A stretch of 60,438 nucleotides of DNA. Source: an uncultured Candidatus Binatia bacterium. GTDB taxonomy: Bacteria > Desulfobacterota > Binatia > HRBIN30 > CADEER01. Of this stretch, positions 1 to 51,517 are shown one piece after another. Numbering within the stretch: position 1 is the first letter of the stretch; every line of letters starts with the position of its first letter. Location: contig CAYYWP010000004.1 of assembly GCA_964475125.1 (NCBI GenBank), positions 1 through 60,438 on the forward strand, written 5' to 3'. The position numbers were made by a program, and so were the translations under genes. The notes below the pieces were generated by a model. It had not been told where the DNA came from. It did no database searches and saw only the letters and a program-made list of their open reading frames with translations.

Positions 1-106
1 ACCCGGCCCACTCGGCCCAACGTCCCCTTCCCTTCACCCTTCCCCCCCGAGCCGGTCGCCATGTGGAGTTGACCGCCGCGCGCGTGCGGAAGTAGGGTCG
101 GCCCCT

Positions 107-2491
107 ATGAAGCAGATCGGCAAGGGGTTCACCTCGCTCACCAACGCACAGCTGGCAGCCGGCAAGGGCACCTTCACCGCCGACTTCCGCCTCGATGGCA
201 TGCTGCACCTCGCCCTGGTGCGCAGTCCCTACGCGGCCGCGCGCGTGAAACGCATCGACACCAGCGCCGCCGAACGGCTGGCGGGCGTCGTCTGCACCAT
301 CACCGGCGAGGAGCTGAAGGCGCGCACCAAACCGATGATGGCGCCCTTGAATTACGACGCTCTGGGGGCCAAGGGCGTGCGGCCCTATGCCCTGGCGCTC
401 GACCGCGTGCGCTACGTCGGCGAGGCCGTCGCCGGGGTGGTGGCGGAGGACAAGTGGACGGCGCGCCAGGCCGCCGATCTGGTCGCGGTCGAGTACGAAG
501 AGCTGCCGGTGGTGAGCGATTCCGAACTGGCCCTCGAGCCCGGCGCGCAGCGCGTCGAGCCGGATTGGAGCGACAACGTCATCATCAGCCGCGACTTTCT
601 GAGCGGCGATCCGGACGCTGCCTTCGCCGCCGCCGACGGCACCATCTCCGGTCTGGTCAAACAACACCGCTACACCGGCGCGGCGATCGAGCCGCGCGCC
701 TATCTCGCCACCTACGATCCGTACCTCGACTTTCTGACCTTCTGGGCCTCGACCCAGAATCCGCATCCGCTGCGCGTCTACCTGGCCGAATCGCTCGGCA
801 TCCAGGAGAGCCGCATCCGCGTCATCCAGCCGTTCGTCGGCGGAGCCTTCGGGCTCAAGATCCCGACCTTCCAGGAAGAACCGCTGGTCGCCTACCTGGC
901 GCGCAAGCTCGAGCGGCCGGTGCGCTGGGTGGCGGAGCGCAGCGAGGATCTGCTGGCCGGGGGGCACGCGCGCGAGGAACGCATCCCCTACGAGGTCGCC
1001 TATAAGAAGGATGGCACGATCACCGGCCTGCGCGCCACGGTCATCGCCGACGTCGGGGCCCCCTCGGGGCTGCCCGGCTGGCCGATGTCGTTCGTCAGCG
1101 CCTACTGCATTCCGACTTCCTACCGGATCACCAACACGCGCGTGCAGCTCTTCTCCGTGGCCACCAACAAGTGCCCGTGGAACGCCTATCGCGGCTACGG
1201 CAAGGAGGCCGCCTCCTTCCTGATGGAGCGCATCATGGATCAGGTGGCGCGTGCCACCGGGCTCGATCGCGCCGCCGTGCGGCTGAAGAACTTCATCCCG
1301 CCCGACCAGTTTCCCTACTCGCAGATCTCCGGTGCCATGCTGGACAGCGGCGACTATCCGAAGGCGCTGCGCCGGGTGCTGGCGATGATCGACTACGAGA
1401 ACTTCGCCCCGCGGCGCGAGCAGGCGCGCAAGGAGGGCCGGCGCATCGGCCTCGGCCTGAGCTTCGAGCTCACGCCGGAGGGCTGCTCGATGCCGCAGTC
1501 GACCCTGATCGGCGGCTGGGACGGCGCCACGGTGCGGGTCAACCCTTCCGGCCAGGTGACCGTGCTGACCGGCGTCACCTCACCCGGCACCGGCAACGAG
1601 ACCGGCATCGCGCAGATCGCCGCCGAGATGCTGGGCGTCGATCTCGACCAGGTGCGGGTGATTCAGGGCGACACCGACACCTGCCCGTTCGGGCTCGGCA
1701 ACTACAGCTCGCGCAGCATCATCATGGGCGGTTCCGCCACCCAGGTCGCCGCCCAGGAGATCCGCGAAAAAATGTCGCGTGTCGCGGCGCGCATGCTCGA
1801 GGTGCGGCCGGACGAGGTGGACGTCGACGAGGGCCGCTTCTTCGCCAAGGGCGCGCCGGCGCGCCACGTGTCGTTCAAGGATGTGGCGAGTACCGCGTAT
1901 CGCGATTGCCACGGCGCCGCCGCCTGCGACGTCGAACCGGGTCTCGAGGCGACGCGCTACTTCCAGCATCCCAACGTCTACCACCAGCCGGAGACCCAGG
2001 GGCGCTTCAGCTCCTACCCGTCGTGGCCATACGGCGTGGCGGCCTGCATCGTCGAGGTGGATCCCGACACCGGCAAGTTCAAGATCCTGCGCTACTGCAT
2101 GGTCCACGACAGCGGCACGATCATCAATCCGCTGCTCGCCGAGGCCAACCTGCACGGCGGCCTGGCGCAGGGGATCGGCGGCGCGGTATTCGAGAACCTG
2201 GTCTACGACCAGGCCGGGCAGCTCCTGACCACGACGTTCATGGATTACACCTGCCCGACGGCGGTGGATCTGCCATCCTTCGAGATCGAACATCAGGAGA
2301 CGCGCTCGCCGTTCACGCCGCTCGGTACCAAGGGCGTGGGCGAGTCGGGGGTGACCGCGCCGCTGGCGGCCCTGTGCGGCGCCATCGAGGACGCCTTCCC
2401 GGACCTCGAGATGTCGCTGACCGAGCTGCCGCTGACGCCGAGCCGGGTGTGGTCGGCCATCCACGCGGCGCGGCCGCGCGCCGCGCGCTGA
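107..2491 (+). CDS. Molybdopterin-binding large subunit of the xanthine dehydrogenase / aldehyde oxidase / CoxL family (not form-I CO dehydrogenase)
   Basis: 794-codon ORF. N-terminal LHLALVRSPYAAARVKRID and C-terminal PLGTKGVGESGV are family landmarks. The active-site loop reads NAYRGYGK, not the form-I AYxCSFR signature. No 2Fe-2S or FAD subunit gene lies next to it inside the window. Confidence 0.85.
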   Translation: MKQIGKGFTSLTNAQLAAGKGTFTADFRLDGMLHLALVRSPYAAARVKRIDTSAAERLAGVVCTITGEELKARTKPMMAPLNYDALGAKGVRPYALALDRVRYVGEAVAGVVAEDKWTARQAADLVAVEYEELPVVSDSELALEPGAQRVEPDWSDNVIISRDFLSGDPDAAFAAADGTISGLVKQHRYTGAAIEPRAYLATYDPYLDFLTFWASTQNPHPLRVYLAESLGIQESRIRVIQPFVGGAFGLKIPTFQEEPLVAYLARKLERPVRWVAERSEDLLAGGHAREERIPYEVAYKKDGTITGLRATVIADVGAPSGLPGWPMSFVSAYCIPTSYRITNTRVQLFSVATNKCPWNAYRGYGKEAASFLMERIMDQVARATGLDRAAVRLKNFIPPDQFPYSQISGAMLDSGDYPKALRRVLAMIDYENFAPRREQARKEGRRIGLGLSFELTPEGCSMPQSTLIGGWDGATVRVNPSGQVTVLTGVTSPGTGNETGIAQIAAEMLGVDLDQVRVIQGDTDTCPFGLGNYSSRSIIMGGSATQVAAQEIREKMSRVAARMLEVRPDEVDVDEGRFFAKGAPARHVSFKDVASTAYRDCHGAAACDVEPGLEATRYFQHPNVYHQPETQGRFSSYPSWPYGVAACIVEVDPDTGKFKILRYCMVHDSGTIINPLLAEANLHGGLAQGIGGAVFENLVYDQAGQLLTTTFMDYTCPTAVDLPSFEIEHQETRSPFTPLGTKGVGESGVTAPLAALCGAIEDAFPDLEMSLTELPLTPSRVWSAIHAARPRAAR

Positions 2492-2516
2492 CCGAGAGGC
2501 ATTCGGAATCCCAGAC

Positions 2517-3374
2517 ATGGCGCTGGTCTTGCGCCCCGGGCGGAGCGAGGACGCCGAACGCTGCGGAACCATCTGCTGGGAGGCCTTCCAGCGCATCGGC
2601 GACCAACACCACTTTCCGCCGGACGTGCCGTCGGCGGAGGTCGGCATCAAGGTGGTCGGCGGCCTGCTGCGCCACCCGCGCTTCTACAGCGTCGTGGCCG
2701 AGCTCGACGGGCAGATCGTCGGCAGCAACTTCGCCGACGAGCGCTCGGCGATCGCCGGCATCGGCCCGATCACGGTGGCGCCCGCGGCCCAGGATCGGTC
2801 CATCGGTCGCCGGCTCCTGGTCGACACGCTCGAACGACAGGTCGCCCGCGGGACGCCGGGCACTCGCCTGGTGCAGAGCACCTATCACACGCGCTCCCAC
2901 AGCCTGTACACGAAGGCCGGCTTCGAGACGCGCGAGATGCTCTCGGTGATGCAGGGCTCGCCACCGGCGGTCAAGCTGCCCGGACACGCCGTGCGGGTGG
3001 CGCGTCGCGACGATCTGGCGGCCTGCAACCGCCTCTGCTTCGCCGTGCACGGCCACGACCGCGGCGGCGAGCTGGCGGAAGCGATCGACGGCGGCGCCGC
3101 TACGCTCGTCGAGCGCGATGGCCGCATCACCGGCTATGCCACGCGCATCGGCTGGACCGGGCACGCCGTGGCGGAGTCGAACCACGACCTCGAGGCGCTC
3201 ATCGCCGCCGCGCCCAACTATTCCGGGCTCGGCTTCCTCGTCCCGACGCGCAACGGCGAGCTGCTGCGCTGGTGCCTCGAGCACGGGCTCCGGCTCGTGG
3301 TGATCGCCACCCTCATGAGCGTCGGCCTGTACAACGAGCCGCGCGGCGCCTGGCTGCCGTCGATTCTCTTCTGA
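2517..3374 (+). CDS. GNAT-family N-acetyltransferase
   Basis: 285-codon ORF. VAPAAQDRSIGRRLL resembles GNAT motif A (acetyl-CoA binding). YTKAGFE follows, as is typical for the fold. Confidence 0.7.
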   Translation: MALVLRPGRSEDAERCGTICWEAFQRIGDQHHFPPDVPSAEVGIKVVGGLLRHPRFYSVVAELDGQIVGSNFADERSAIAGIGPITVAPAAQDRSIGRRLLVDTLERQVARGTPGTRLVQSTYHTRSHSLYTKAGFETREMLSVMQGSPPAVKLPGHAVRVARRDDLAACNRLCFAVHGHDRGGELAEAIDGGAATLVERDGRITGYATRIGWTGHAVAESNHDLEALIAAAPNYSGLGFLVPTRNGELLRWCLEHGLRLVVIATLMSVGLYNEPRGAWLPSILF

Positions 3375-7592: not shown

Positions 7593-7734
7593 CTTCGAAT
7601 CTCCTCTGGCGTTACCGGTTGGGGTCTACCGGCGGGACCCACTCACCAGCGCGAGCTTGGCCCCGCCGCACGGTTGCGTCAAGCCCCAGCGCGGGAACCG
7701 AGGCCTCTCAGCCCGTTGCGGCACAAGCACTTCC

Positions 7735-7765
7735 CGCTCATCCTGAGCCCGTCGAAGGATGAGCG
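7735..7765. repeat. REP-like hairpin, family A (CGCTCATCC-TGAGCCCGTCGAA-GGATGAGCG)
   Basis: Perfect 9-bp stem with a 13-nt loop. The loop is the complement of the TCGACGGGCTC loop found at 27458 and 43716. Intergenic. Confidence 0.8.
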
Positions 7766-7844
7766 CGGCCTTTCTCAACGGATTGCTATCTCAAATCTCA
7801 TCGACCGGCGGACAGATGACTGCCAGCTGAGCGCGTGCCGAGGC

Positions 7845-27328: not shown

Positions 27329-27540
27329 GCAGAGACCCAGAGTACGCAGAGGACCCGGAGGCTGCGTGCATGAGTTCGAGCGCTGACTCATGGTCATCGT
27401 CAATTGGGTCTGGGGGTCAATCTCTCGCAGGATGCTGAACAACCCGCCGCTCACCCTTCGACGGGCTCAGGGTGAGCGGAACCGCGGGTTTTTCAGCATC
27501 CTGCTCGACCCTCGTACTCCGCGTTCTCTGCGGTCTCCGC
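27329..27540. repeat. Composite nested palindromic element: outer family C arms, inner 76-nt palindrome carrying a family A hairpin
   Basis: The outer arms are 27329..27355 (gcagagacccagagtacgcagaggacc) and 27510..27540 (ccctcgtactccgcgttctctgcggtctccg), in inverted orientation. The inner palindrome is 27428..27503 (caggatgctgaa..aacccgc..gctcaccct / agggtgagc..gcgggtt..ttcagcatcctg), with core hairpin 27449..27477. Confidence 0.75.
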
Positions 27541-40338: not shown

Positions 40339-40386
40339 GCGCGGCGCCGCCGCCGACGCGCGCCGGAGCCGAGGGAGGTGAAGCGC

Positions 40387-41397
40387 ATGGAGCCGACCAG
40401 TGAGCAGCTGCTCTGGATGTACAAGACGATGCTCGTCATCCGCGACCTGGAGGAGACGCTGGCCAAGGTCTACCTCGAGGGCAAGCTGCCGCCCCACATT
40501 CAGAAGGGCCTGGCCTTCGACATCGGCAGCGGCCCGGTGCCGGGTGAGATGCACCTCGCCGCCGGCCAGGAGCCGGTCGCGGTCGGCGTGTGCGCGCACT
40601 TGCGGCCCGAGGACACGGTGACGGCGCCGCACCGCCCGCACCACTTCGCCATCGCCAAGGGCGTGCCGCTCGACCGCATGGTGGCCGAGATCTTCGGCAA
40701 GGTGACGGGCCTCTGCCGCGGCAAGGGCGGCCACATGCACCTCTTCGATCCGGCGCACAAGTTCTCGTGCAGCGGGATCGAAGGCGCCGGCATGCCGATC
40801 GCCTGTGGCGCCGCGCTGGCGGCGAAGAAGAAAGGGAAGGATTGGGTGGCGGTCGCGCTCTTCGGCGAAGGCGCCGCCAACCAGGGCACCTTCCACGAGT
40901 CGCTCAATCTGGCGGCGCTGTGGCAGCTGCCGGTGGTGTTCGTCTGCGAGGACAACAAGTACGCCATCTCGGTGGAGAAGAGTATGTCGACGGCGGTGGC
41001 CTCGAACGCCGAGCGCGCCGCGGCCAACGGCGTGCCCGGGGTGAACGTGGAGCGCAACGACCCGGTCGAGATCTTCCGCGCCGCCGGCGCGGCCGTGCAG
41101 CGGGCGCGCGGCGGCGGCGGGCCGACGCTGATCGAGGTCAAGACCGACCGCTACCTGGGGCACTTCGAGGGCGACGCGCAGGCCTATCGCCCCAAGGGCG
41201 AGAGCGAGGAGCTGCGCCGGCGCGATCCCATCCCGGCGCTCGCCGCGCACCTGCGCGAGCGCGGCATCATGCCGGCGCAGGAGGAGGAGGCGTTTCGCCA
41301 GCAGGCCCGAGCGCGCGTCGCCGCGGCCATCGAGTTCGCCCGCACCAGTCCGTATCCGGATGCGCGCGAGGCGCTGCAGCACGTCTTCGTCGGCTAG
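40387..41397 (+). CDS. TPP-dependent 2-oxoacid/acetoin dehydrogenase E1 alpha subunit
   Basis: ATG 40387 lies 8 nt after GGGAGG; the track uses GTG 40378. Contains GEMHLAAGQEPVAVG, GKGGHMHL, and the TPP-binding GEGAANQGTFHESLNLAALWQLPVVFVCEDNKYA. Confidence 0.9.
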   Translation: MEPTSEQLLWMYKTMLVIRDLEETLAKVYLEGKLPPHIQKGLAFDIGSGPVPGEMHLAAGQEPVAVGVCAHLRPEDTVTAPHRPHHFAIAKGVPLDRMVAEIFGKVTGLCRGKGGHMHLFDPAHKFSCSGIEGAGMPIACGAALAAKKKGKDWVAVALFGEGAANQGTFHESLNLAALWQLPVVFVCEDNKYAISVEKSMSTAVASNAERAAANGVPGVNVERNDPVEIFRAAGAAVQRARGGGGPTLIEVKTDRYLGHFEGDAQAYRPKGESEELRRRDPIPALAAHLRERGIMPAQEEEAFRQQARARVAAAIEFARTSPYPDAREALQHVFVG

Positions 41398-41426
41398 CGG
41401 ACAAGTCGGGTGAGAGGAGATCCGCC

Positions 41427-42461
41427 ATGACGACCACCAACCGCACCCTGACGATGGCCCAGGCGATCGCCGAGGCATTGGGGCAGGAAATGGAACGCGA
41501 TGCCGACGTCTTCGTCATGGGCGAGGACGTCGGCCGCTACGGCGGCATCTTCGGCGCCACCGGCGGGCTGCATCAGCGCTTCGGCTCCGAGCGCGTCATG
41601 GACACGGCGATCTCGGAGGCGGGCTTCATCGGCATGGCGATCGGCGCCGCCGCCGAGGGCATGCGCCCGGTCGCGGAGCTGATGTTCGTCGACTTCTTCG
41701 GCGTCTGCATGGACCAGATCTACAACCACCTGGCCAAGAACACGTACATGTCGGGCGGTGCGGTGCGGCTGCCGGTGGTGCTGATGACCGCCATCGGCGG
41801 CGGCTACAGCGACGCCGCCCAGCACTCCCAGTGCCTGTACGCGACTTTCGCCCACGTGCCGGGCCTCAAGGTCGTCGTCCCGTCCACTGCCTACGATGCC
41901 AAGGGGCTGATGATCCAGGCGATCCGCGACGACAACCCGGTGATGTACTTCTTCCACAAGGGCATCATGGGCCTGCCGTGGATGGCCTACTTCGAGGGCA
42001 GCCGCGGCGACGTGCCGGCGCAGGCCTACGCGATCCCGTTCGGGCAGGCGGCGGTGCGGCGCGAGGGGAGCGACCTGACGCTCGTCAGCCTGAGCCAGAT
42101 GGTGCACAAGGCGGCGCTGGCGGCGGAGGAGGTGGCGAAGGAGGGCATCAGCGTCGAGATCATCGACCTGCGCACGCTGGTGCCACTCGACACCGAGGCG
42201 GTCGTGCGCTCGGTGGCCAAGACCGGCCGGCTGTTGATCGCCGACGAGGATTACCTGTGCTTCGGCCTGAGCGGCGAGATCGCCGCGCTGATCGCCGAGC
42301 GCCTGGATGCGATCCGCCTCAAGGCACCGATCCGGCGCCTCGGCGTGCCGAGCGTACCGATTCCGTACAGCCGCCCGCTCGAGCAGGCCGTGATCCCGCA
42401 GGTCGCCCACATCGCCGAGGCGATCCGCGCCACCGTGCGCGCCCGCGTCGCCGCTCCGTAG
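41427..42461 (+). CDS. 2-oxoacid/acetoin dehydrogenase E1 beta subunit
   Basis: ATG 41427 follows GAGAGGAG. LTMAQAIAEALGQEMERDADVFVMGEDVG.YGG.F. is the transketolase-like pyrimidine-binding and C-terminal domain pattern. Confidence 0.9.
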   Translation: MTTTNRTLTMAQAIAEALGQEMERDADVFVMGEDVGRYGGIFGATGGLHQRFGSERVMDTAISEAGFIGMAIGAAAEGMRPVAELMFVDFFGVCMDQIYNHLAKNTYMSGGAVRLPVVLMTAIGGGYSDAAQHSQCLYATFAHVPGLKVVVPSTAYDAKGLMIQAIRDDNPVMYFFHKGIMGLPWMAYFEGSRGDVPAQAYAIPFGQAAVRREGSDLTLVSLSQMVHKAALAAEEVAKEGISVEIIDLRTLVPLDTEAVVRSVAKTGRLLIADEDYLCFGLSGEIAALIAERLDAIRLKAPIRRLGVPSVPIPYSRPLEQAVIPQVAHIAEAIRATVRARVAAP

Positions 42462-42522
42462 CTCGCTCGTCGGCGGCCTACCTCATGGTTACAGCTCGCT
42501 CCGGGCACTCACTGGCTGGGCG

Positions 42523-43524
42523 ATGATTGAGATCAGTCTGCCCGACGAGGCGTGGACGGACGTCGAGGAGGGCACGGAGGCGCTGCTCGATCAGTGGTTG
42601 GTGGCGGAGGGCAGCGCGGTGGCGCGCAGCCAGGCGGTCGCGCTGGTCGTGCTCGTCAAGACCAGTTACGAGGTGAGCGCGCCGGCCGACGGGCGCATCG
42701 CCCGGATCCTGGTGGCACCAGGGGAGACGTTCGCACGCGGGCGAGCGCTCGCCGAGCTCGAAGGAGCCGCGGCGTCGGCGCCGACTGGCGCTGCGGCACC
42801 CGTTGCGGCGCCGCCGGCGGCGGCAGAAGAAGCGCCGGCCAGCACCGTGCTGGAGCGCATTCCGTTTACCGGCCTGCGCGGCGCCGTGGTCCGCACCATG
42901 GCGTCGACCTGGCAGACGGTGCCTCCGGTGGCCCTCTTCGCCGAGGTCGAGACTTCGGCCGGCGATCGCCGCCTCGAGACGCTGCAGCGCGAGGTGGGTG
43001 GCGAGCCGCGCCTCTCGCTCACGCATCTGATCCTGCGCGCTGTGGCCCTGACGCTGCGCGAGCATCCGCGGTTGAACGCGCGCGTCCATGCCGATGGCAT
43101 CGAGGTGTTGCGCGAGATCCACCTCGGCCTCGCCGTCAATCTCGAGGATGCCCTGGTCGTGCCGGTGATTCGCGGCGCCGACCGCAGGTCGATCCCCGAG
43201 CTGGCGCGCGAGGCGCAACATCTGGCCGCCGCGGCGCGCGCCGGCCAGCTCGCGCCGGCGGCGTTTCAGGGCGGCACGTTCACGGTGAGCAACCTCGGCG
43301 CCACCGGTATCGATGCGTTCACGCCGATCATCAATCCGCCGCAGGTCGCCATCCTCGGCGTCGGGCGCCGGGCCCTGCGCGCCATCGTGCGCGACGGCCG
43401 GGTCGTCGCCGCGCCGACGCTCGTGCTGACGCTGGTCTTCGATCACCGCGCCATCGACGGTTTTCCCGCCGCGACCTTCTTGGCCGCGCTGCGCGCGCGG
43501 CTCGAGCGCGCCGCCGATCTCTGA
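42523..43524 (+). CDS. Dihydrolipoamide acyltransferase (E2), short form: lipoyl domain plus catalytic domain, no recognisable subunit-binding domain
   Basis: Lipoyl domain with VVLVKTSYEVSAPADG (lipoyl-Lys context). Ala/Pro linker. Catalytic domain ending in DHRAIDG. Confidence 0.85.
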   Translation: MIEISLPDEAWTDVEEGTEALLDQWLVAEGSAVARSQAVALVVLVKTSYEVSAPADGRIARILVAPGETFARGRALAELEGAAASAPTGAAAPVAAPPAAAEEAPASTVLERIPFTGLRGAVVRTMASTWQTVPPVALFAEVETSAGDRRLETLQREVGGEPRLSLTHLILRAVALTLREHPRLNARVHADGIEVLREIHLGLAVNLEDALVVPVIRGADRRSIPELAREAQHLAAAARAGQLAPAAFQGGTFTVSNLGATGIDAFTPIINPPQVAILGVGRRALRAIVRDGRVVAAPTLVLTLVFDHRAIDGFPAATFLAALRARLERAADL

Positions 43525-43531
43525 CCGTACC

Positions 43532-44563
43532 GTGTCGTTCGCGCTGCGCTGTGTCACCGCCGCCGAGGAACAGGCGTGGAACGACCGCCAGCTCGCCACA
43601 CCGGTCACTGCCCCGCGCCTGGCGTTCTGGACGTATCGCGACACGGCCGTCGTGGTCGGACGGTCGCAGCGCCACGGTGCGGGCACCGACTGTCCCGCCG
43701 CGTTCCGCTCGCCCTTCGACGGGCTCAGGGCGAGCGGAACGCTCGACGGCGGATGTCCCTTTCCGCTCGCGCTGAGCCCAGCCAAGCATGAGCGCGCGCT
43801 GCTTCCACCGCCTGCTAGCCCTTTCCTGCTCACGCTGAGCCCCCCCAAGCATGAGGGCGCGCTCCTTGCACCGCCCGCTAGCCCTTTCCCGCTCATGCTG
43901 AGCCCGTCGCAGCATGAGCGCGCGCTCTTTCCACCGCCTGCGAGTCCTTTCCCGCTCATGCTGAGCCTGTCGAAGCATGAGCGCGCGCTTTCTCGGACGC
44001 CTGCTCGGGTGCCGATCGTTCACCGCCGTTCCGGCGGTGGCGCGGTGCTGGTCGGGCCCGAGGTGCTCGGCGTGTCCGTGCTGCTACCGCTGGAACACCC
44101 GTTCGCCGTCTCGGGACTCGTGTCTTCTTATGAATGGTTCGGATGCGCGCACGCGCGCGCCTTGCGGCGCCTGGGAGTGCTATGTGAGGCCGTCAGCCCC
44201 AAGGCACTGCCCCGCGCCGCCGCCGACCCGATTGCGGCCTGGGCTTGCTTCGGTGCGGTATCGCCGTGGGAAGTCGTGACACTCACCGGTCGCCGCAAGC
44301 TCGTCGGCCTGGCCCAGCGGCGCACGCGCACCGGCGTGCTGCTCGTCAGCGGCACTTTGATCGAGGACCAGCGATGGGACGTCCTCTGCGATGCCCTCGG
44401 CCAGTCGGTCGAAGCCGCCGCCATCCTGCGGGGATCGACATCGTCATGCCGCCGCGAGCTCGGGAAGTCGATCGCCGTCGCCGACGTCGCCCGACGGGTT
44501 GCCCGCGAGCTCGACGTCGCACTGCGCTTCGAGATGCCACCCGGCGCGCAGGGCGAGCCGTAG
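43532..44563 (+). CDS. Lipoate-protein ligase family protein (BPL/LplA/LipB catalytic domain) carrying an approx 100-aa in-frame repeat-derived insertion
   Basis: GTG start. Landmarks VVVGRSQ, HRRSGGGAVLVG and GRRKLVGLAQRR (catalytic Lys context). Residues between the first two landmarks are encoded by the repeats at 43702..44007. The stop codon lies inside the 56-bp repeat 44555..44610. Confidence 0.7.
   Translation: MSFALRCVTAAEEQAWNDRQLATPVTAPRLAFWTYRDTAVVVGRSQRHGAGTDCPAAFRSPFDGLRASGTLDGGCPFPLALSPAKHERALLPPPASPFLLTLSPPKHEGALLAPPASPFPLMLSPSQHERALFPPPASPFPLMLSLSKHERALSRTPARVPIVHRRSGGGAVLVGPEVLGVSVLLPLEHPFAVSGLVSSYEWFGCAHARALRRLGVLCEAVSPKALPRAAADPIAAWACFGAVSPWEVVTLTGRRKLVGLAQRRTRTGVLLVSGTLIEDQRWDVLCDALGQSVEAAAILRGSTSSCRRELGKSIAVADVARRVARELDVALRFEMPPGAQGEP
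43702..43740. repeat. REP-like hairpin, family A, inside a coding sequence
   Basis: gttccgctcgccct-tcgacgggctc-agggcgagcggaac: perfect 14-bp stem, 11-nt loop identical to the loop at 27458..27468. Confidence 0.85.
43756..44007. repeat. Tandem array of four 63-nt family-A-related hairpin units inside a coding sequence
   Basis: Units start near 43756, 43819, 43882 and 43945. Units 3 and 4 keep perfect stems (cgctcatgctg..cagcatgagcg). Units 1 and 2 are decayed. The period of 63 nt equals 21 codons. Confidence 0.9.
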
Positions 44564-44610
44564 CCGTGGAACCCGTGCCCGCCGGCAGCGCCGCGCGCTG
44601 CCCGGTGGGG
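44555..44610. repeat. 56-bp GC-rich palindromic element, family E, copy 1
   Basis: gagccgtagccgtggaacccgtgcccgccggcagcgccgcgcgctgcccggtgggg is 53/56 identical to 56951..57006. It contains the stem ccggcagcgc/gcgctgcccgg. Both copies lie at gene 3' ends. Confidence 0.85.
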
Positions 44611-44669
44611 TAATCACTCGCCAGAAAAATCCCCTTGTTCCTTATGCTCGGGCTGGCAGGCTAGAGGGA

Positions 44670-47600
44670 ATGACGGACGGGCGTAGTGAAATGAGACGGG
44701 TGTCGGGCGGGAGAATTGGTTTGCTCGCGGCGTTGGCCGCGCTCGGGCTGGCGGCGTGCGGTGGCGGCGGTGGAAAGAGCCCGACACCGGGCGCACCGGT
44801 GCTGGATCCGATCGAAGATCAGCAGATCGAGCCGACCCGCTCGCTCGTCCTGGCGCTGACGGCCACCGACGCCGAGGGCGATCGCCTCGTCTATTCCAGC
44901 ACGGCGCTGCCCGCCAATGCCGCGCTCGTCCCGTCGACCGGCTTGTTCGTCTTCACCCCCGATGCGAGCCAGGCCGGCACGAGTCAGACCATCACCTTCA
45001 CCGTCAGCGACGGCGAGCAGGAGGACCACGAGCGCGTCCGCATCCGCGTCACTCGCTCCGTGCCGCCCACCAATCTCAGTCCCGATCTGGCGCCGATCGG
45101 CGACCACACGGTGCGCGCCGGTTCGACGCTGACCCTGCAGCAGAGCGCTACCGACCCGGAAAACGATCGGATCACCTTCAGCGTCCACCCGGCGCTGCCG
45201 CCCAATGCGACCTACGACAGCCACACGGGCCGCTTCACGTTTGCCCCGTCGGCGGCTCAGAAAGGGACGTACCCGTTCAGCTTCGTCGCCAGCGACGGCA
45301 ACAGCGCCGATTACGAAACCGTGCACATCGCCGTCACCGACGGCGACACGCCGTGCGCGGTGAGCACGCCGGCCGGGTGCGCGCCGCTGCCGACCGCCAC
45401 GCCGAGCACGCCAGCGCCCCCGTCCGCCACCCCGGCGACGCCGCCCAATCTCGTCATCACCAACCAGTGCTACACAGTTTCGTCCGGCAGCTACACGTAC
45501 AACTACGTCAACGTCGCCGAGGGTGGCCAGCTCATCTTCCTCGACGACGGCGGCACCATCGACTTCCGCGTCAGCTCGATGCTGGTGGAGCAGGGCGGCT
45601 CGGTACAGGCCGGCTCGCTCGAGTGCCCCTTCGGCTCGGCCGACGGCAAGCTGAAGATCGGCCTCTGGGGTACCGATCCGACCCAACAAGGAACGGTATT
45701 GAGCCCTACGCCGGCGGGGATCACCTGCGTCGGGACGACGATGAACCCGGGCGAGTGCTTCGATCCGGCGCTGACCGAATCGCCGCACTACTGCATGGAA
45801 CCCGATCCATCCGGGACGTGGAGCCCGAGTGACCCGTGCAACGTCACCCTGCCGAGCGATCAGCAGCAGGCCAACGGCAATGCCCTCTTCGAAGGCTACG
45901 ACGCCCTGAACTTCGACTACGGCGAGAACTACTTCGGCTACAAGGTGTTCGCCGTCAGCTATGGCGGCAGCGTGCAGTTCTTCGGTCGCAAGGGCGTCGC
46001 CGACGCGGACCTGTCGCCGACGCCGCCGACCACCTGCGACACGCCGGAGAATCAGTACGACGTCAACCAGTGGGCGGCGCTCAGCGGCTCGAGCTGGGCG
46101 CGCCTCGACCAGACGGTCAGCGCCGGCCAGACGATGGTGACGCTCGACCGCCCGGTCGATTGGGAAGAGGGCGATCAGGTCGTCGTGGCGACGACGGACT
46201 GGTACCCGAGTCACTCCGAGCTGATGGAGGTCCAGTCGGCGTCCACCACCGGCGGGCAGACGACCCTGACGCTCGACGGGCAGTTCTCATACGCTCATAA
46301 CGGGCAGACCTATGCCGTGCCGGAGACGCTGCGCACCAACGCGGGCAACCCCAACACCGAGGTCGAGCTGCGCGCCCCCGTCGGCCTGCTGACGCGCAGC
46401 ATCGTCATCTACTCGCTCGGCGAGACTCCCGACCAGCCGTTCCCGAGCCCGCCGTCGGGAAACGAGCAGCCGAGCCAGGAGTGGCTCAACTGCAGCTACG
46501 CCAACAACGGCGCGACACCATCGCCCGCTGCAACACCGTCGGCGACACCATCGGCGACGTCGTCGCCGACGGTGGCGCCCCATCCCGAGTGCTACTTCGG
46601 CGGTCACGTCATCGTGCGCCAGGGGTTTGGCACCTTCCAGGCACAAGGCGTCGAATTCCGCCAGCTCGGCCAGGGCGGCCGCATGGGGCACTATCCCATG
46701 CACTTCCACCTGGCGAAGTCGACCGACTACACCGATGCCTTCCTCAAGGACAGCTCGATCTGGGATTCGATGAACCGCTTCGTGGTCCTGCACGCCTCCC
46801 ACGGCATCACCGTGGCGCGCAACGTCGGCTTCCTCTCGATCGGCCATGCCTACTACCTCGAGGACGGCTCGGAGATCGAGAACCTGCTCTGTCACAACCT
46901 CGCCGTCTCCGTGCGCGGCGCGCTGAACGAGTTCTTCGCGGCCCAGCCGGTGCAGGATCCCTCGTACCGATTCGTGCCGCCGATCCTCGACGCCACCGAA
47001 GAAGAGGCGGGTGGGACATGTGCGTTCGGCGGCGACACGCTCCTTCCCACCGCGTTCTGGACCATGAACACCTGGAACGAGCTGGTCGGCAACGCCGCAT
47101 CCGGCGTGTACGGCTTCGGCTCCTGTTACTGGCTGCTGGGCTCGGGGGTGAGCGGACCGAGCAACAGCCCAGATTTCACCTGGTCGAAGAACACCGACTC
47201 GCCGGCCGACTACGCCGACTTCAACCTCGCCGGCACCCAGCAGGCTCCCCTCAAACGCTTTCGCGGCAACTCGTGCAGCAGCGCCGGCTACGGTCTGCAG
47301 AGCACGCTCCAAATCGAGCCGGTGGGCAACACGCCGCTGCTCACCGGCTTCACGCCCTCCACCAATCCTTACCTCACCAACAATCCGACGCAGTTCGACC
47401 GGCCGATGGTCACCGGCAACTATCTGCCGGTGAAATATGGCACCAACCCGAGCTGTGCGAGCGGCTATCCGGAGGAGAGCCAGTTCGCCTCCAACCCCGA
47501 CTACTGCGTCACCACGGTGATCGACCGCTTCACCACCTCGTTCAATCGCGCCGGCGCCAACTTCGCCGCGGTGTGGCTACGGCCGGAGTGGTTCGTGTTC

Positions 47601-50102
47601 ATGAACGGTGCGGTGACCGACCAGCTTGCCGGCGGCCTCACTTTCGTCACCGGTGGGAGCTGGACGCAGACCCCGCCCGGGTATTTCGCCATCACCAAGA
47701 ACAGCGTCTTCGTCGGCTCCACGCAGCCCGACAATCCTGACGCGGCGCCGATCGGCCCGGCCGTGTGCCCGAGCCCGACGCCGTCGACGACCTGCGCGCA
47801 AGCCTGCAGCGGCGGGGTCTGCCCGTTACCGGCCGATGGCATCGGCCTGTTCACCGGCGGCCTCAATCCGAAGCGCATGATCAGCATCTACGACGGGCCG
47901 TTCTACGCCGACGGCACGGTGTTCACCGACACGTCGCCGTTGACGTGCAACACGACGGGGCCGGCGCCGTACAACGACCCGAACGGTTGCCAGATCTACT
48001 CCTCGACTACTCAGCCGGAATACCAGAATCCGAACCCGACTCCGGGCGCGACCCCGCAGCCGCAGATGAACGTCGTCAATGCGGCGGTGGGCTGGAAGCA
48101 GCCGAACGGCTTCTATTATCCCCCGGCATTCGCCTTCCGGAAGTCCGCCTTCGATACCGCCACCTTCCGCCACAACGTCATCGATCAGTACGCCAACTAC
48201 TTGCAGGGGTCGCTGGCGGCTCCCGACTGCACGACGACGCCTTCCGGATGCCCGGCGCGCTTCGTGCCGCTCGGCGAGACGTACCCGGGCATCACGCCGA
48301 TCGACTTCTCCACCATCCTCAACGACATGGACGGCAGCTTGACCGGCTGGGTGCCGCAGGGCGGCACGCGCACTTCCTCGGTGAGCAAGAACGTCTTCTT
48401 CGACGCCCCCTCGCAGGATGCCGAGTGCCAGTCGTTCGGCGTGCAGACCGCGCCCTACGAGTTCGTGTCTTCGGTGATCGCCCCGCTCGGCGGTACGAGC
48501 CCGAATCAATACGTCGACCCCACGGTGTGGGGGATCGCCAACCTCCCCGCGGTGCCGATCTACCGCCAGCTCGCCCTGCCGGATGACCAGTGCCTGGGCG
48601 ACCAATCGGTGTGCTGCGCCCCCGGCCAGCAGGACTGCCCGGTCGGCACCGTCGGCTGTACGCGCGCCAGCTTCATGCTCGGCGGCCAGAACGGCCAGGC
48701 GCCGTACCTCACCTCGAACAACGGCGTCTACTACATCGACACCAACAAGCAGGAGGACAACCCGAGCTGCTTCATGCAGGCGCAGGTGTTCGAGCCCGGC
48801 TTCGCGGCCGATCAGTCGTACGTGCTCTACAACCTGTTCGCCAACGAGAACACCAAGGTCACCTATCAGCTTTACGTCGGCGACGGCTTCCAAGCCTCGG
48901 CCGGCCAGTGGGTGTTGGTGCAGCCGCATGTCTTCAGCACCTCCTCCGGACAGGGCGGCAATGCCACGGTGGTCACGCCCATCACCGATGCGCCGACGCT
49001 CGCCACCCTGAACGCCGGCGTGAGCGTGAGCAACGGCATCCTGCAGGTGGTCCTCAATCACTCCGCCATCGCCGACGACTATCTGTTCTCCAGCCGTCCG
49101 GACTACGACGTCTGCCTGCCGCGCGATATCTGTCAGATCGACACCAGCTCGCCGACACCGACCTCCTGCACCATCCAGGCGCAACCCAGCTTCCTCGACG
49201 GCAACGCTACCGACTACGCCGACTATCAGGCCGCCGTGACCGACATCTGCGAATACTGGGCGACTGCGACCGCCGGCCGCACCTCGCTGCCCAACACGCC
49301 GGGCGACGATGCCGACGATCCGATCTTCGCCGACTGTCCCACCGGCGGCTGCCTCGGTTACGCCTTCACCCTGCCGTCGAGCTTCACGCCCATGCCGTAT
49401 GCGGCCGTCGCGCCGACGCCCGGCTGCTTTGAGGCAGGCACCTGGAACATCTCGATGAGCTCGATCGACCCGGACTGCCCGACGCCGGCGCCTCCCGATC
49501 CCAGCGCGTTTTGCTCCGGCGGCACGCCGACGCCGACGCCAGGGACGCCCGGCGCGACGCCGACGGCTACGGCGACGAACGGCCAATTGGCTACCGCAAC
49601 TGCGACCGGTACCGGACCTGCCGCCACCGAAACGCCGACCGTTCCGCCAACCACGGCGGCCGCGACCGCGACGGCAACTCCCGGGATCGCGACGCCGACT
49701 CCCACCGGGTCGCTTCCGGAAGCAACCCCTACTCCGACACCACTCACGACTCCGACCGGCTCGCTCGTCTGGGTCTTGAACGGCAGCACCACCACGGCGA
49801 CGCTCACCGGGATATCGACCAGCGGCACGACCTATACGCAGGGGCAGCTCGCGCTGCAGGACGCGCAACAGCGCTTCTGCACCGCGACCGGAACGTTCCC
49901 GGTCCTCCAGGTCGTCGTCTCCTCGACCGACCTGCAAACGATCGGCCTATTCCCGGTCACCAGCATGGAGACCGTCGGCATCAGCGCGCTTCCCGCCGTG
50001 TCGGCCGGCACCTACGACGTGCAGATCCAGACCTTCCCCGGCTGCGACAGCACCAAACCGCCCATCTTCATCACTATGCCCAGCGCGATCATGTACGAGT
50101 GA
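44670..50102 (+). CDS. Giant lipoprotein (approx 1810 aa): two He_PIG-type Ig-like domains, a G8 domain, a CEMIP/TMEM2-like parallel beta-helix core, a long Cys-rich region, a Thr/Pro linker and an unknown C-terminal domain
   Basis: - Start: ATG 44670 or 44691 gives the signal LLAALAALGLAAC (lipobox). The 44391 start in the track is an Arg/Ser-rich artefact that overlaps the previous gene.
- Ig-like repeats: about 44796..45054 and 45087..45342 (TATDAEGDRLVYSSTALPANA... / SATDPENDRITFSVHPALPPNA...).
- G8-like region: about 45444..45675 (VNVAEGGQLIFLDDGGTIDFRVSSMLVEQGGSVQAGS...KLKIGLWG).
- Core block: GRMGHYPMHFHL...SIWDSMNRFVVLHASHGITVARNVGFLSIGHAYYLEDGSEIEN (about 46680..46880). It parallels the LGRYPIHFHL...GHCFFTEDGPEE block I recall from CEMIP. 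Confidence 0.8.
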   Translation: MTDGRSEMRRVSGGRIGLLAALAALGLAACGGGGGKSPTPGAPVLDPIEDQQIEPTRSLVLALTATDAEGDRLVYSSTALPANAALVPSTGLFVFTPDASQAGTSQTITFTVSDGEQEDHERVRIRVTRSVPPTNLSPDLAPIGDHTVRAGSTLTLQQSATDPENDRITFSVHPALPPNATYDSHTGRFTFAPSAAQKGTYPFSFVASDGNSADYETVHIAVTDGDTPCAVSTPAGCAPLPTATPSTPAPPSATPATPPNLVITNQCYTVSSGSYTYNYVNVAEGGQLIFLDDGGTIDFRVSSMLVEQGGSVQAGSLECPFGSADGKLKIGLWGTDPTQQGTVLSPTPAGITCVGTTMNPGECFDPALTESPHYCMEPDPSGTWSPSDPCNVTLPSDQQQANGNALFEGYDALNFDYGENYFGYKVFAVSYGGSVQFFGRKGVADADLSPTPPTTCDTPENQYDVNQWAALSGSSWARLDQTVSAGQTMVTLDRPVDWEEGDQVVVATTDWYPSHSELMEVQSASTTGGQTTLTLDGQFSYAHNGQTYAVPETLRTNAGNPNTEVELRAPVGLLTRSIVIYSLGETPDQPFPSPPSGNEQPSQEWLNCSYANNGATPSPAATPSATPSATSSPTVAPHPECYFGGHVIVRQGFGTFQAQGVEFRQLGQGGRMGHYPMHFHLAKSTDYTDAFLKDSSIWDSMNRFVVLHASHGITVARNVGFLSIGHAYYLEDGSEIENLLCHNLAVSVRGALNEFFAAQPVQDPSYRFVPPILDATEEEAGGTCAFGGDTLLPTAFWTMNTWNELVGNAASGVYGFGSCYWLLGSGVSGPSNSPDFTWSKNTDSPADYADFNLAGTQQAPLKRFRGNSCSSAGYGLQSTLQIEPVGNTPLLTGFTPSTNPYLTNNPTQFDRPMVTGNYLPVKYGTNPSCASGYPEESQFASNPDYCVTTVIDRFTTSFNRAGANFAAVWLRPEWFVFMNGAVTDQLAGGLTFVTGGSWTQTPPGYFAITKNSVFVGSTQPDNPDAAPIGPAVCPSPTPSTTCAQACSGGVCPLPADGIGLFTGGLNPKRMISIYDGPFYADGTVFTDTSPLTCNTTGPAPYNDPNGCQIYSSTTQPEYQNPNPTPGATPQPQMNVVNAAVGWKQPNGFYYPPAFAFRKSAFDTATFRHNVIDQYANYLQGSLAAPDCTTTPSGCPARFVPLGETYPGITPIDFSTILNDMDGSLTGWVPQGGTRTSSVSKNVFFDAPSQDAECQSFGVQTAPYEFVSSVIAPLGGTSPNQYVDPTVWGIANLPAVPIYRQLALPDDQCLGDQSVCCAPGQQDCPVGTVGCTRASFMLGGQNGQAPYLTSNNGVYYIDTNKQEDNPSCFMQAQVFEPGFAADQSYVLYNLFANENTKVTYQLYVGDGFQASAGQWVLVQPHVFSTSSGQGGNATVVTPITDAPTLATLNAGVSVSNGILQVVLNHSAIADDYLFSSRPDYDVCLPRDICQIDTSSPTPTSCTIQAQPSFLDGNATDYADYQAAVTDICEYWATATAGRTSLPNTPGDDADDPIFADCPTGGCLGYAFTLPSSFTPMPYAAVAPTPGCFEAGTWNISMSSIDPDCPTPAPPDPSAFCSGGTPTPTPGTPGATPTATATNGQLATATATGTGPAATETPTVPPTTAAATATATPGIATPTPTGSLPEATPTPTPLTTPTGSLVWVLNGSTTTATLTGISTSGTTYTQGQLALQDAQQRFCTATGTFPVLQVVVSSTDLQTIGLFPVTSMETVGISALPAVSAGTYDVQIQTFPGCDSTKPPIFITMPSAIMYE

Positions 50103-50282: not shown

Positions 50283-51444
50283 GGGGACGTAGGGCCGGGG
50301 AGGCCGGGTGTGACGGACTCACCGTGGATCGGATCTGCGCAGCCAGTGCGTGCAGCGAGTGCGAAGTGAAGGGTCCTCGGCTATCCGTAACGGATGCCGC
50401 GGGGTCCGCGTCTCGATTTCAGTGGCGCCCTCCATCACGTCATCGTCCGCGGTATCGAGCGCGGGCGCATCTTCCGTGACGGTCGCGACCGCGCCGAGTG
50501 TCGCGAGCGGCTGGGCCGGGCGCTTCGTGACGGCGGCGCGGCGCTGTACGCTTGGTGCTTCATGCCCAACCATGCCCATGCGTTGGTGCGCACGGGGGCG
50601 GTTCCCCTCTCGCGGGTGATCCAGCGCTGGCTCGGTCACTACGCGGTGCGCTTCAATCTCCGCCATCGACGCGCCGGTCATCTGTTCCAGAATCGCTTTA
50701 AGAGCACCCTGGTCGAGGAGGAGCGGTATTTTCTCGAGCTGGTGCGCTACATCCACCTCAATCCTGTCCGCGGGCAACGGCCGCTTGTCACGCTCGACGG
50801 GCTGGACAACTACCGCTGGAGCGGGCACGCAGTCTTGCTCGGTCGCCAGAGTTTCGCGGCGCAAGACACGGACTTCGTCCTGCGGCAGTTTGCTGCCCGT
50901 GCCGGACCAGCGCGCAGTGGCTACCGCGCCTTCGTGCGCGCCGGAAACGGTCGGCACGCGGCGCTTGACCTGGACGGCGGCGGGCTGCGGCGCAGCGCCG
51001 GCGGTTGGTGGATGGTGCGCGTGCTGGCACGCGGCCGTGAGCGTTGGGCGCACGACGAACGGGTGCTCGGCGACGGCGAGTTCGTCAATCGCGTCGTGCG
51101 CGAATCGATCAGTGCCTTCGCCCCGCCAGCGGCGAATCCGGCAGAGCTCGTGACCAACCTGTGCGGCCGATTCGCCTCGCGGTTCGCCCTCACCCCGGCG
51201 GAGGTGGCTCGGCCGAGCCTGCGCGCCCCCGTGCTCGATGCACGTGCACTCGTGAGCGAGGCGGCCGTGCGCGAGCACGGTCTGCCCCTGACCACAGTCG
51301 GACGGCAGCTTGGCGTGTCCAAGCAGAGCATCGCTCGCGCCCTTCTGCGCGCTGCCAGGCTGCGCCACGGGCGATGACAGACCGCGGAGGCATACGCGGG
51401 TTGGCGCTCTATCCTCACCCCGGCCGACCCGGCCCTACGTCCCC
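50283..51444. mobile_element. RAYT-type unit: HUH transposase gene bracketed by 17-18-bp perfect inverted repeats
   Basis: ggggacgtagggccgggg (50283..50300) is the exact reverse complement of (c)cccggccctacgtcccc (51428..51444). Confidence 0.7.
50394..51377 (+). CDS. IS200/IS605-type Y1 HUH transposase, REP-associated (RAYT-like), with a C-terminal DnaA-domain-IV-like HTH
   Basis: MPRGPRLDFSGALHHVIVRGIERGRIF. HUH motif HAH at 50571..50579 (FMPNHAHALV). Catalytic Tyr context LVRYIHLNPV. C-terminal LPLTTVGRQLGVSKQSIARALLRA. Confidence 0.85.
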   Translation: MPRGPRLDFSGALHHVIVRGIERGRIFRDGRDRAECRERLGRALRDGGAALYAWCFMPNHAHALVRTGAVPLSRVIQRWLGHYAVRFNLRHRRAGHLFQNRFKSTLVEEERYFLELVRYIHLNPVRGQRPLVTLDGLDNYRWSGHAVLLGRQSFAAQDTDFVLRQFAARAGPARSGYRAFVRAGNGRHAALDLDGGGLRRSAGGWWMVRVLARGRERWAHDERVLGDGEFVNRVVRESISAFAPPAANPAELVTNLCGRFASRFALTPAEVARPSLRAPVLDARALVSEAAVREHGLPLTTVGRQLGVSKQSIARALLRAARLRHGR

Positions 51445-51517
51445 TTGTGGTACCCCCCCCTACGTCCCCTTGTGGTACCGCCCCTTGTGGTACCCGCTAC
51501 GTCCCCTTGTGGTACCC
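51435..51517. repeat. Tandem short repeats (CTACGTCCCCTTGTGGTACC, 3 full units plus 1 partial)
   Basis: Full units at 51435..51454, 51460..51479 and 51497..51516. Partial unit at 51481..51495. They immediately follow the right inverted repeat of the RAYT unit. Confidence 0.85.

Follow-up and report, generated by a model that had tools for sequence, protein, structure and literature searches.

In Rickettsia, many housekeeping genes are interrupted in frame by palindromic repeats, called Rickettsia palindromic elements (RPEs), which lie at sites predicted to suit the fold of the encoded protein (Ogata et al. 2000, summarised in PMC10969869). For other prokaryotes, the same review considers a similar in-frame mechanism to be conceivable but unexplored, and it reports that intragenic MITEs (transposable elements of the miniature inverted-repeat type; ERIC, BOX, the Anabaena MITEs and QMITE1 of Coxiella) occasionally make in-frame fusions with host open reading frames (ORFs). 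Evenly spaced tandem arrays of repetitive extragenic palindromes (REPs) are also known in P. fluorescens SBW25, where they are extragenic (PMC3116915). Here, we analysed the DNA of an uncultured Candidatus Binatia bacterium (contig CAYYWP010000004.1 of assembly GCA_964475125.1, positions 1-60,438; this whole stretch of 60,438 nucleotides is hereafter called the window), in which a REP-like hairpin and four tandem 63-nt units interrupt, in frame, the catalytic domain of an LplA/LipB-fold enzyme gene (Table 1). We consider it probable that a REP-like element invaded a permissive loop of this gene, was amplified in place by steps of 21 codons and has been tolerated.

An in-frame insert in an LplA/LipB-fold gene

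The host ORF (43532..44563) remains open over 343 codons and displays the landmarks VVVGRSQ, HRRSGGGAVLVG and GRRKLVGLAQRR, as stated in the initial annotation of this DNA. That annotation also counted ~118 residues between GRSQ and RRSGGG where ~20 are usual, and the alignment bears this out with 118 residues between invariant Gln46 and Arg165 in the host against 12-24 (median 19) in 83 homologues. These 83 other proteins (188-302 aa) were collected by a word-indexed search and all of them lack the insert. At the genomic level, 201 loci were confirmed among 185,579 species genomes, and the insert is absent from each of the 80 that were retained, two syntenic Binatia metagenome-assembled genomes (MAGs) included, with matches of 399-748 nt that are too short to contain a 300-nt insert. 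In one of these Binatia loci (L001), the conserved halves are 13 codons apart versus 112 in the window gene. A phmmer search of 1.84 billion representative proteins gave 1007 relatives; in the best 150 of them, the site lies between conserved segments and residues ~51-150 have no counterpart. The initial annotation had proposed such an alignment with the idea that a genuine domain would recur in repeat-free orthologues, and the ~100-aa segment was found in none of the orthologues examined. As judged by these alignments, the insert is foreign to the host gene. The 103-aa peptide that it encodes gave 285 candidates but no significant one among 5.8 billion proteins, a type of search for which single 21-aa units are too short, and blastn against plasmids returned no match. 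Copies of the hairpin were likewise not detected by nhmmer in the 80 orthologue loci, which is uninformative since they comprise just ~21 kb of Binatia DNA.

The anatomy of the insert is regular. Tandem Repeats Finder reported an array at 43757-43989 with a period of 63, 3.7 copies, 86% matches, 0% indels and a score of 326, well above every other array of the 60-kb window, in accordance with the four tandem 63-nt units annotated at 43756..44007. Each unit combines a forward hairpin (~33-nt core) with a 32-nt non-hairpin spacer, for 63 nt in total. The hairpin that leads the array had been described as a perfect stem of 14 bp; the stem is indeed perfect, but its arms measure 16 bp (43700-43715 / 43727-43742) around an 11-nt loop, with an outer 5-bp stem past a bulge, and its inverted orientation had gone unstated. 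Its reverse complement is the same element as the tandem units, it folds with -43.4 kcal/mol (z = -6.25 versus shuffles), and together with unit 1 it forms an inverted doublet (34 nt, 79% complementary). Also as first described, the two 3' units have perfect stems (11 and 10 bp) and the two 5' units are degenerate. Unit 4 is the nearest to the family consensus (0 mismatches to the pattern) and its 3' tail resembles that of the copy at 7735. Pairwise identity among the four units is 73-84%, i.e. a divergence of 16-27%, and 22 of the 63 columns are variable.

The 63-nt period equals 21 codons and the host frame is the sole open forward frame through the insert, which agrees with the initial claim of a 21-codon unit read without a stop. 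Among forward frames, the array is readable in that of the host alone because the forward units have a TGA in both others (4 and 6 stops across the insert); two antisense frames are likewise open. The encoded segment is proline-rich, with peptides such as ALLPPPASPF and ALFPPPASPFPLM. Variable columns of the units are spread over codon positions 1/2/3 as 8/5/9, and the GC content at third codon positions is 0.735 in the insert and 0.82-0.87 in its flanks. This even spread and this composition argue that the peptide is not selected as a protein and that the segment is unlike host coding sequence.

Around the insert, the enzyme looks intact. The host protein retains 34/34 columns that are invariant in 15 homologues and 71 of the 75 columns conserved at 85% or more, and both the RRxxGGG motif (R165-R166-S-G168-G169-G170) and the catalytic lysine (K256), all invariant in the homologue alignment, are kept. 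In the AlphaFold2 model, 197 core residues have a predicted local distance difference test score (pLDDT) of at least 90, while residues 51-113 and 115-147, which belong to the insert, fall below 50. The insert is thereby predicted to be disordered around an intact and confident core. The AlphaFold model of an insert-free orthologue (P0002) has a mean pLDDT of 93 and a predicted template modelling score of 0.91. Its equivalent site (residues ~47-58) is a coil between strands 39-42 and 59-63 with the lowest confidence of the N-terminal half, so the site is a variable surface loop. The two models are in line with the surface-loop location proposed at the outset.

Other identities were considered for the repeated segment and rejected. 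A structured-RNA family was set aside because the whole window gave nothing in Rfam at gathering thresholds, with only sub-threshold chance matches in 43500-44200. In a clustered regularly interspaced short palindromic repeats (CRISPR) array only the repeats would recur, but here the whole 63-nt unit is repeated, its "spacer" included, and the Rfam CRISPR-DR23 match reaches 19 bits for a gathering score of 45. Two minus-strand ORFs that run across the insert, 42478-43959 and 43331-44023, were not accepted as genes either; they lie over the genes for E2 and the LplA-fold protein, and high GC accounts for them. Finally, a candidate target-site duplication, cgggcaccga/cgggtgccga (43680-43689 / 44006-44015), is identical at 8/10 positions, which we estimate to be chance level, and its 326-nt spacing is not a multiple of three.

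The hairpin family in the window, in metagenomes and in other genes

The 31-nt pattern of the hairpin family, with three mismatches at most, matches three sites of the window where none is expected (0/100 shuffles matched), and both nhmmer and the pattern tie the insert to the copies at 7735 and 27449. The kinship of these two copies with the insert, part of the initial annotation, therefore stands; their intergenic setting is established at 7735 by Pfam-supported genes on either side and is given at 27449 by ORF positions only. The latter copy (27425-27510) is nested in a longer outer palindrome (gcaggatgctgaa ... ttcagcatcctgc), making up an ~80-nt composite hairpin of -55.8 kcal/mol (z = -7.96) that may be a larger element carrying the core hairpin.

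Outside the window, the core pattern GCTCNNNCTGAGCCNGTCGAAGNNNGAGC is present on at least 120 metagenome contigs. Among the matches listed, the variable stem triplets are fully complementary in 78 of 128 distinct copies, with eight different types, and such covariation indicates that the hairpin is maintained. Among the same matches, 104 of the 115 testable sites have a coding signal on neither or just one side, which puts them outside or at the edge of coding signal and is what the initial description of an intergenic-type palindrome implied. The commonest arrangement includes a partner in opposite orientation 28-141 nt away, and in these copies no flanking sequence is conserved past the foot of the hairpin (a C ahead of GCTC and a G behind GAGC). 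Judged on its sequence features, the family is REP-like, abundant and mostly extragenic. Its core spans ~12 codons, and in either orientation the common variants leave two of the three frames open, SLSKHE, FDKLRANG and PEPVEGR being typical encoded peptides. Full-text literature searches with core DNA words and typical encoded peptides found no description of this family.

The host gene is not the only one to be read through a family copy. Among the 120 metagenome loci listed, in-frame copies were also found in genes whose domains are supported by Pfam, namely those of an ATPase, a helicase, cyclases and other proteins, and several of these copies lie inside the conserved domain (Table 1). The two cyclases (L145 and L180) come from different metagenomes and are 61% identical, and they carry one and two copies, respectively, at the same domain position. 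In-frame inserts can therefore outlast long divergence, and their copy number can vary. A crude census of coding signal among the matches listed counted five sites in frame, two that share the strand but not the phase, and one with an internal stop; these small numbers are consistent with filtering for frame preservation.

Regarding mobilisation, the window encodes a Y1 (IS200-like) transposase that resembles a REP-associated tyrosine transposase (RAYT) at 50394-51377 on the plus strand, ~6 kb downstream of the host gene (327 aa; HUH motif NHAHAL, Tyr motif YIHLNPV). It scores 41 bits with PF01797 and 58.7 bits with NF047646, below the cut-off of 80. A phmmer search with E. coli RayT against the six-frame ORFs of the window and of the 120 loci gave only a weak match (E = 0.12), which Pfam then confirmed as a Y1 transposase. 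The RAYT-like gene is bracketed by a repeat other than the hairpin family of the insert (CCCTACGTCCCC...). Its flanks, at 50283-50308 and 51419-51516, hold 26-nt inverted repeats that are 92% complementary, and behind it lies a small CCCTACGTCCCCTTGTGGTACC array, of a repeat family that again differs from that in the LplA-fold gene.

The host enzyme and its neighbours

The host ORF starts 8 nt past the stop of the E2 gene and is the last gene of an E1alpha-E1beta-E2 operon. The same E1alpha-E1beta-E2-LplA-fold order occurs in two Candidatus Binatia MAGs (L001 and L002), from which we deduce that the window comes from a Binatia-like bacterium and that the operon has in the host gene an enzyme of its own for attaching lipoyl or octanoyl groups. 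Identity to the L001 proteins is 87.5% for E1alpha, 85.8% for E1beta and 67.8% for E2, and the N-terminal part of the host protein shares 74% identity with that locus over residues 5-47 (tblastn). PF21948 (LplA-B_cat) matches the host protein with 49.7 bits (cut-off 27) over residues 158-327 only (profile 54-199). The match is partial because the domain is split by the insert, and Pfam consequently recovered just the C-terminal two thirds of the catalytic domain. With the AlphaFold model, the best Foldseek hits are T. acidophilum LplA (2ART; E = 5e-10, TM(target) 0.68) and M. tuberculosis LipB (1W66), and a profile of the host family retrieved Thermoplasma LplA (2ARS, 3.6e-6) from the PDB by hmmsearch. 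No NCBIfam equivalog matched the host protein, and an orthologue (P0003) scored 32 bits with NCBIfam LplAB for a cut-off of 550. The initial label of lipoate-protein ligase is thus right as to the LplA/LipB fold, but a ligase specifically, as opposed to a transferase, is not established in view of the missing equivalog. On this sequence evidence, a better name for the host would be LplA/LipB-fold lipoyl or octanoyl ligase/transferase.

Members of the host subfamily are stand-alone proteins of ~230 aa with PF21948 (a few also with PF03099) whose genes always follow an E2 gene. They share a near-invariant cysteine in a WACFG motif (Cys239), 17 residues ahead of invariant Lys256, an arrangement that resembles the Cys/Lys pair of LipM/LipL-type transferases. 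The name "lipoate-protein ligase A" that some sources give to this subfamily may be wrong. In Burkholderiales loci (L003-L079), the order E1alpha-E1beta-(short lipoyl-domain ORF)-LplA-fold recurs in many Comamonadaceae, and what precedes their LplA-fold gene matches only the first 80-90 residues of the E2 of the window. Directly downstream of the host gene, 44670-50102 (plus strand) encodes an ~1800-aa protein with cadherin-like/Big_9, G8 and CEMIP beta-helix domains and Thr/Pro-rich linkers.

Table 1. Positions of the host gene, its insert, related hairpin copies and neighbouring genes in the window; rows with an L number are genes of other loci.
Feature	Position	Strand	Remarks
Host gene, LplA/LipB-fold catalytic-domain protein, stand-alone	43532..44563	+	GTG start, 343 aa, frame open
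N-terminal conserved part, residues 1-53	43532..43691	+	ends ...VVVGRSQRHGAGTDC; aligns with all homologues; pLDDT 90-98
Reverse-oriented hairpin-family copy	43692..43755	-	translated ...AAFRSPFDGLRASGTLDGG; nhmmer E = 5.7e-10 on minus strand
Tandem unit 1 (PFPLALSPAKHERALLPPPAS)	43756..43818	+	stem degenerate
Tandem unit 2 (PFLLTLSPPKHEGALLAPPAS)	43819..43881	+	stem lost
Tandem unit 3 (PFPLMLSPSQHERALFPPPAS)	43882..43944	+	11-bp perfect stem 43890-43900 / 43910-43920
Tandem unit 4 (PFPLMLSLSKHERALSRTPAR)	43945..44007	+	10-bp perfect stem 43953-43962 / 43974-43983
C-terminal conserved catalytic part	44008..44563	+	PF21948; aligned to T. acidophilum LplA; pLDDT 91-98
HRRSGGG	44021-44041		C-terminal part of host
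Cys239	44246-44248		near-invariant; C-terminal part of host
Lys256	44297-44299		invariant; C-terminal part of host
Hairpin-family copy, intergenic	7729..7788	+	nhmmer E = 5e-18; between CarboxypepD_reg gene and CoA-transferase III gene
Hairpin-family copy, apparently intergenic	27425..27482	-	flanking ORFs without Pfam match; intergenic call from ORF positions only
E1alpha, 2-oxoacid dehydrogenase	40378-41397		upstream of host gene
E1beta, 2-oxoacid dehydrogenase	41394-42461		upstream of host gene
E2, lipoyl domain + 2-oxoacid dehydrogenase acyltransferase	42523..43524	+	presumed substrate of host enzyme
L093, RarA/MgsA ATPase	1467-2474	-	one copy inside AAA_assoc_2, translated SAHPEPVEGRAA
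L145, guanylate/adenylate cyclase domain	1835-2401	-	one in-frame copy within domain
L180, guanylate/adenylate cyclase domain	59-1585	-	two in-frame copies within domain
L186, RecG helicase	492-3191	-	two in-frame copies, one inside DEAD domain
L082, nitroreductase-family protein			in-frame family copy
L166, FAD_binding_4 protein			in-frame family copy
L152, PMT_2/TPR protein			in-frame family copy

Origin of the insert and relation to described repeats

In the history that we favour, a REP-like palindrome would have entered, presumably by transposition, the stretch of the LplA/LipB-fold gene that encodes the variable surface loop joining strands VVVGRSQ and IVHRR, probably as an inverted REPIN-like doublet composed of the reverse copy and unit 1. 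The 63-nt segment (forward hairpin and 32-nt spacer) would then have been duplicated in place three times, with slippage or unequal recombination as the likely cause. Duplication in place is suggested because the units share the non-hairpin spacer, which was not seen beside other family copies among the matches listed, and because none of the other loci listed shows a spacing of 63 nt. Only versions in which the reading frame was kept would have survived; indeed, the 21-codon period, the lack of indels and the single open forward frame point to selection for an intact ORF and not for a particular peptide. The outcome would be ~100 extra proline-rich, disordered residues on an otherwise intact enzyme, the gene of which would stay under purifying selection and the product of which most likely still modifies the neighbouring E2.

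Several observations weigh against this history. No 63-nt array of the hairpin family was seen in the 120 other loci listed, and no transposase is tied to the family in the window or in these loci, the sole RAYT-like gene of the window having another repeat. No relative above ~66% identity was available. Besides, the four non-consensus residues at highly conserved columns could reflect early decay, and with the insert a mere ~10 residues upstream of RRSGGG, a ligand-binding motif, activity could be impaired despite the open ORF. A rival explanation is a dead or dying gene, in which insertion beside RRSGGG abolished activity and the open frame is a remnant soon after the event. We hold this to be unlikely, although the large size of the insert (~100 aa) so near the motif, the four substitutions at columns conserved at 85% or more and the unit differences without protein-level constraint all go in this direction, and although long frames stay open by chance where GC is high, as do two antisense frames across the insert. 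Against it, neither a stop nor a frameshift is found in 343 codons and all 34 invariant residues are kept. The 16-27% divergence of the units with zero indels indicates a long residence while the rest of the gene stayed intact, and since every invariant residue was kept over that time, purifying selection would have acted on the gene while it carried the insert. Moreover, AlphaFold models the core with no less confidence than the orthologue that lacks the insert, and other genes have likewise retained in-frame family copies within conserved domains. Because these residues were all kept despite the diverged units, the sequence evidence leans to a tolerated insert over an early inactivation.

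Two other explanations start from the repeats themselves. The segment might have been co-opted, either as a protein part, for example a proline-rich disordered arm that would tether the enzyme to the E2 core or dock on it, or as hairpins tuning expression of the last operon gene via RNA. In favour of this, REP elements influence the stability of mRNA, the stems of units 3 and 4 have remained perfect though the units are otherwise diverged, and the fold of the insert as a whole is more stable than that of shuffled sequences (z = -3.9). Co-option nevertheless seems quite improbable to us, since nothing similar exists at the site in any homologue (the 83 proteins and the best 150 of the 1007 relatives), unit differences are even over codon positions and the stems of units 1 and 2 are lost; in addition, the scan of 42400-44800 detected no terminator- or promoter-like site and Rfam gave no match. 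Alternatively, the array could be an artefact of metagenome assembly, through a chimera induced by repeats or an incorrect number of copies. The metagenome-type contig, the repetitive nature of the hairpin family, the host protein being a singleton cluster and the lack of an identical product on record elsewhere speak for such an error. However, the flanks are the halves of a single gene, share its frame and lie in conserved synteny. In addition, 22/63 columns vary between the units, and no exact word longer than 22 nt is repeated in the insert region, so that assembly is unambiguous at k > 22, hence at usual k-mer sizes; we regard this last explanation as very improbable.

A broader and more tentative proposal, which we put forward as possible rather than probable, is that the CTGAGCCYGTCGAAG-loop family is an undescribed REP-like repeat, unusually suited to translation, that is very widespread in soil and sediment bacteria, has repeatedly been fixed in frame in conserved enzyme domains (those of RarA, RecG, the cyclases and the LplA-fold host) and acts as a general source of new disordered loops and linkers. 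If true, this would extend the RPE phenomenon to free-living phyla, and the LplA array would show that in-frame inserts can also grow by tandem amplification in steps of 21 codons. The significance of the locus would be higher if a genome-wide census showed systematic in-frame fixation of the hairpin family in free-living bacteria. In-frame colonisation by palindromes is textbook knowledge only for Rickettsia, and this locus, along with the RarA, RecG and cyclase genes that hold in-frame copies on unrelated metagenome contigs, provides a clean example in a free-living high-GC lineage that bears on whether extragenic repeats seed new protein segments. With one enzyme, an adjacent cognate E2 and an insert-free orthologue, it also provides a testable system to ask how much foreign disorder an enzyme loop tolerates. 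On the practical side, such inserts split domain-model matches and can mislead annotation and pseudogene calling.

Compared with described systems, the insert shares with RPEs a palindromic element that is also found between genes, lies in frame in unrelated genes, is translated at fold-compatible positions and preserves the host ORF. RPEs differ in measuring ~100-150 bp, being restricted to Rickettsia and, at least in the summary cited above, being reported as each encoding a conserved peptide. Here, a ~33-nt hairpin (63 nt with spacer) occurs in a free-living Binatia-like host as a fourfold tandem, and size and host set it apart. Judged by size and host, the element of the insert behaves like RPEs without being a member of the RPE families. 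REP sequences and REPINs (PMC3116915, PMC3337134) are short imperfect palindromes, highly repeated and mostly extragenic, in which inverted doublets are common; the hairpin family corresponds to them in its 10-16-bp stems with an 11-nt loop, its many mainly extragenic copies and its inverted doublets. In contrast, classical REPs are extragenic by definition and have a cognate RAYT, whereas five copies are translated here with no RAYT linked, and the conserved part is the loop (CTGAGCCYGTCGAAG) instead of a GTAG-type foot. MITEs are likewise small non-autonomous repeats with occasional in-frame fusions, but they are bounded by terminal inverted repeats, show target-site duplications and, as a rule, are AT-rich with a length of 100-500 bp, none of which is seen here. 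With coding variable-number tandem repeats, the array has in common a period divisible by three, a likely origin by slippage or recombination and a repetitive, disordered, variable segment. Those repeats typically belong to surface or contingency genes and do not derive from an extragenic palindrome family, and the 73-84% identity of the units makes rapid phase variation unlikely here.

To conclude, RPEs are the closest described phenomenon in function, and anatomy and distribution are REP/REPIN-like. The locus thus adds a further case to a type of event already described, and what is unusual is the combination of a REP-like element, a position inside a catalytic domain, a fourfold repetition in steps of 21 codons and an outcome of ~100 predicted disordered residues.

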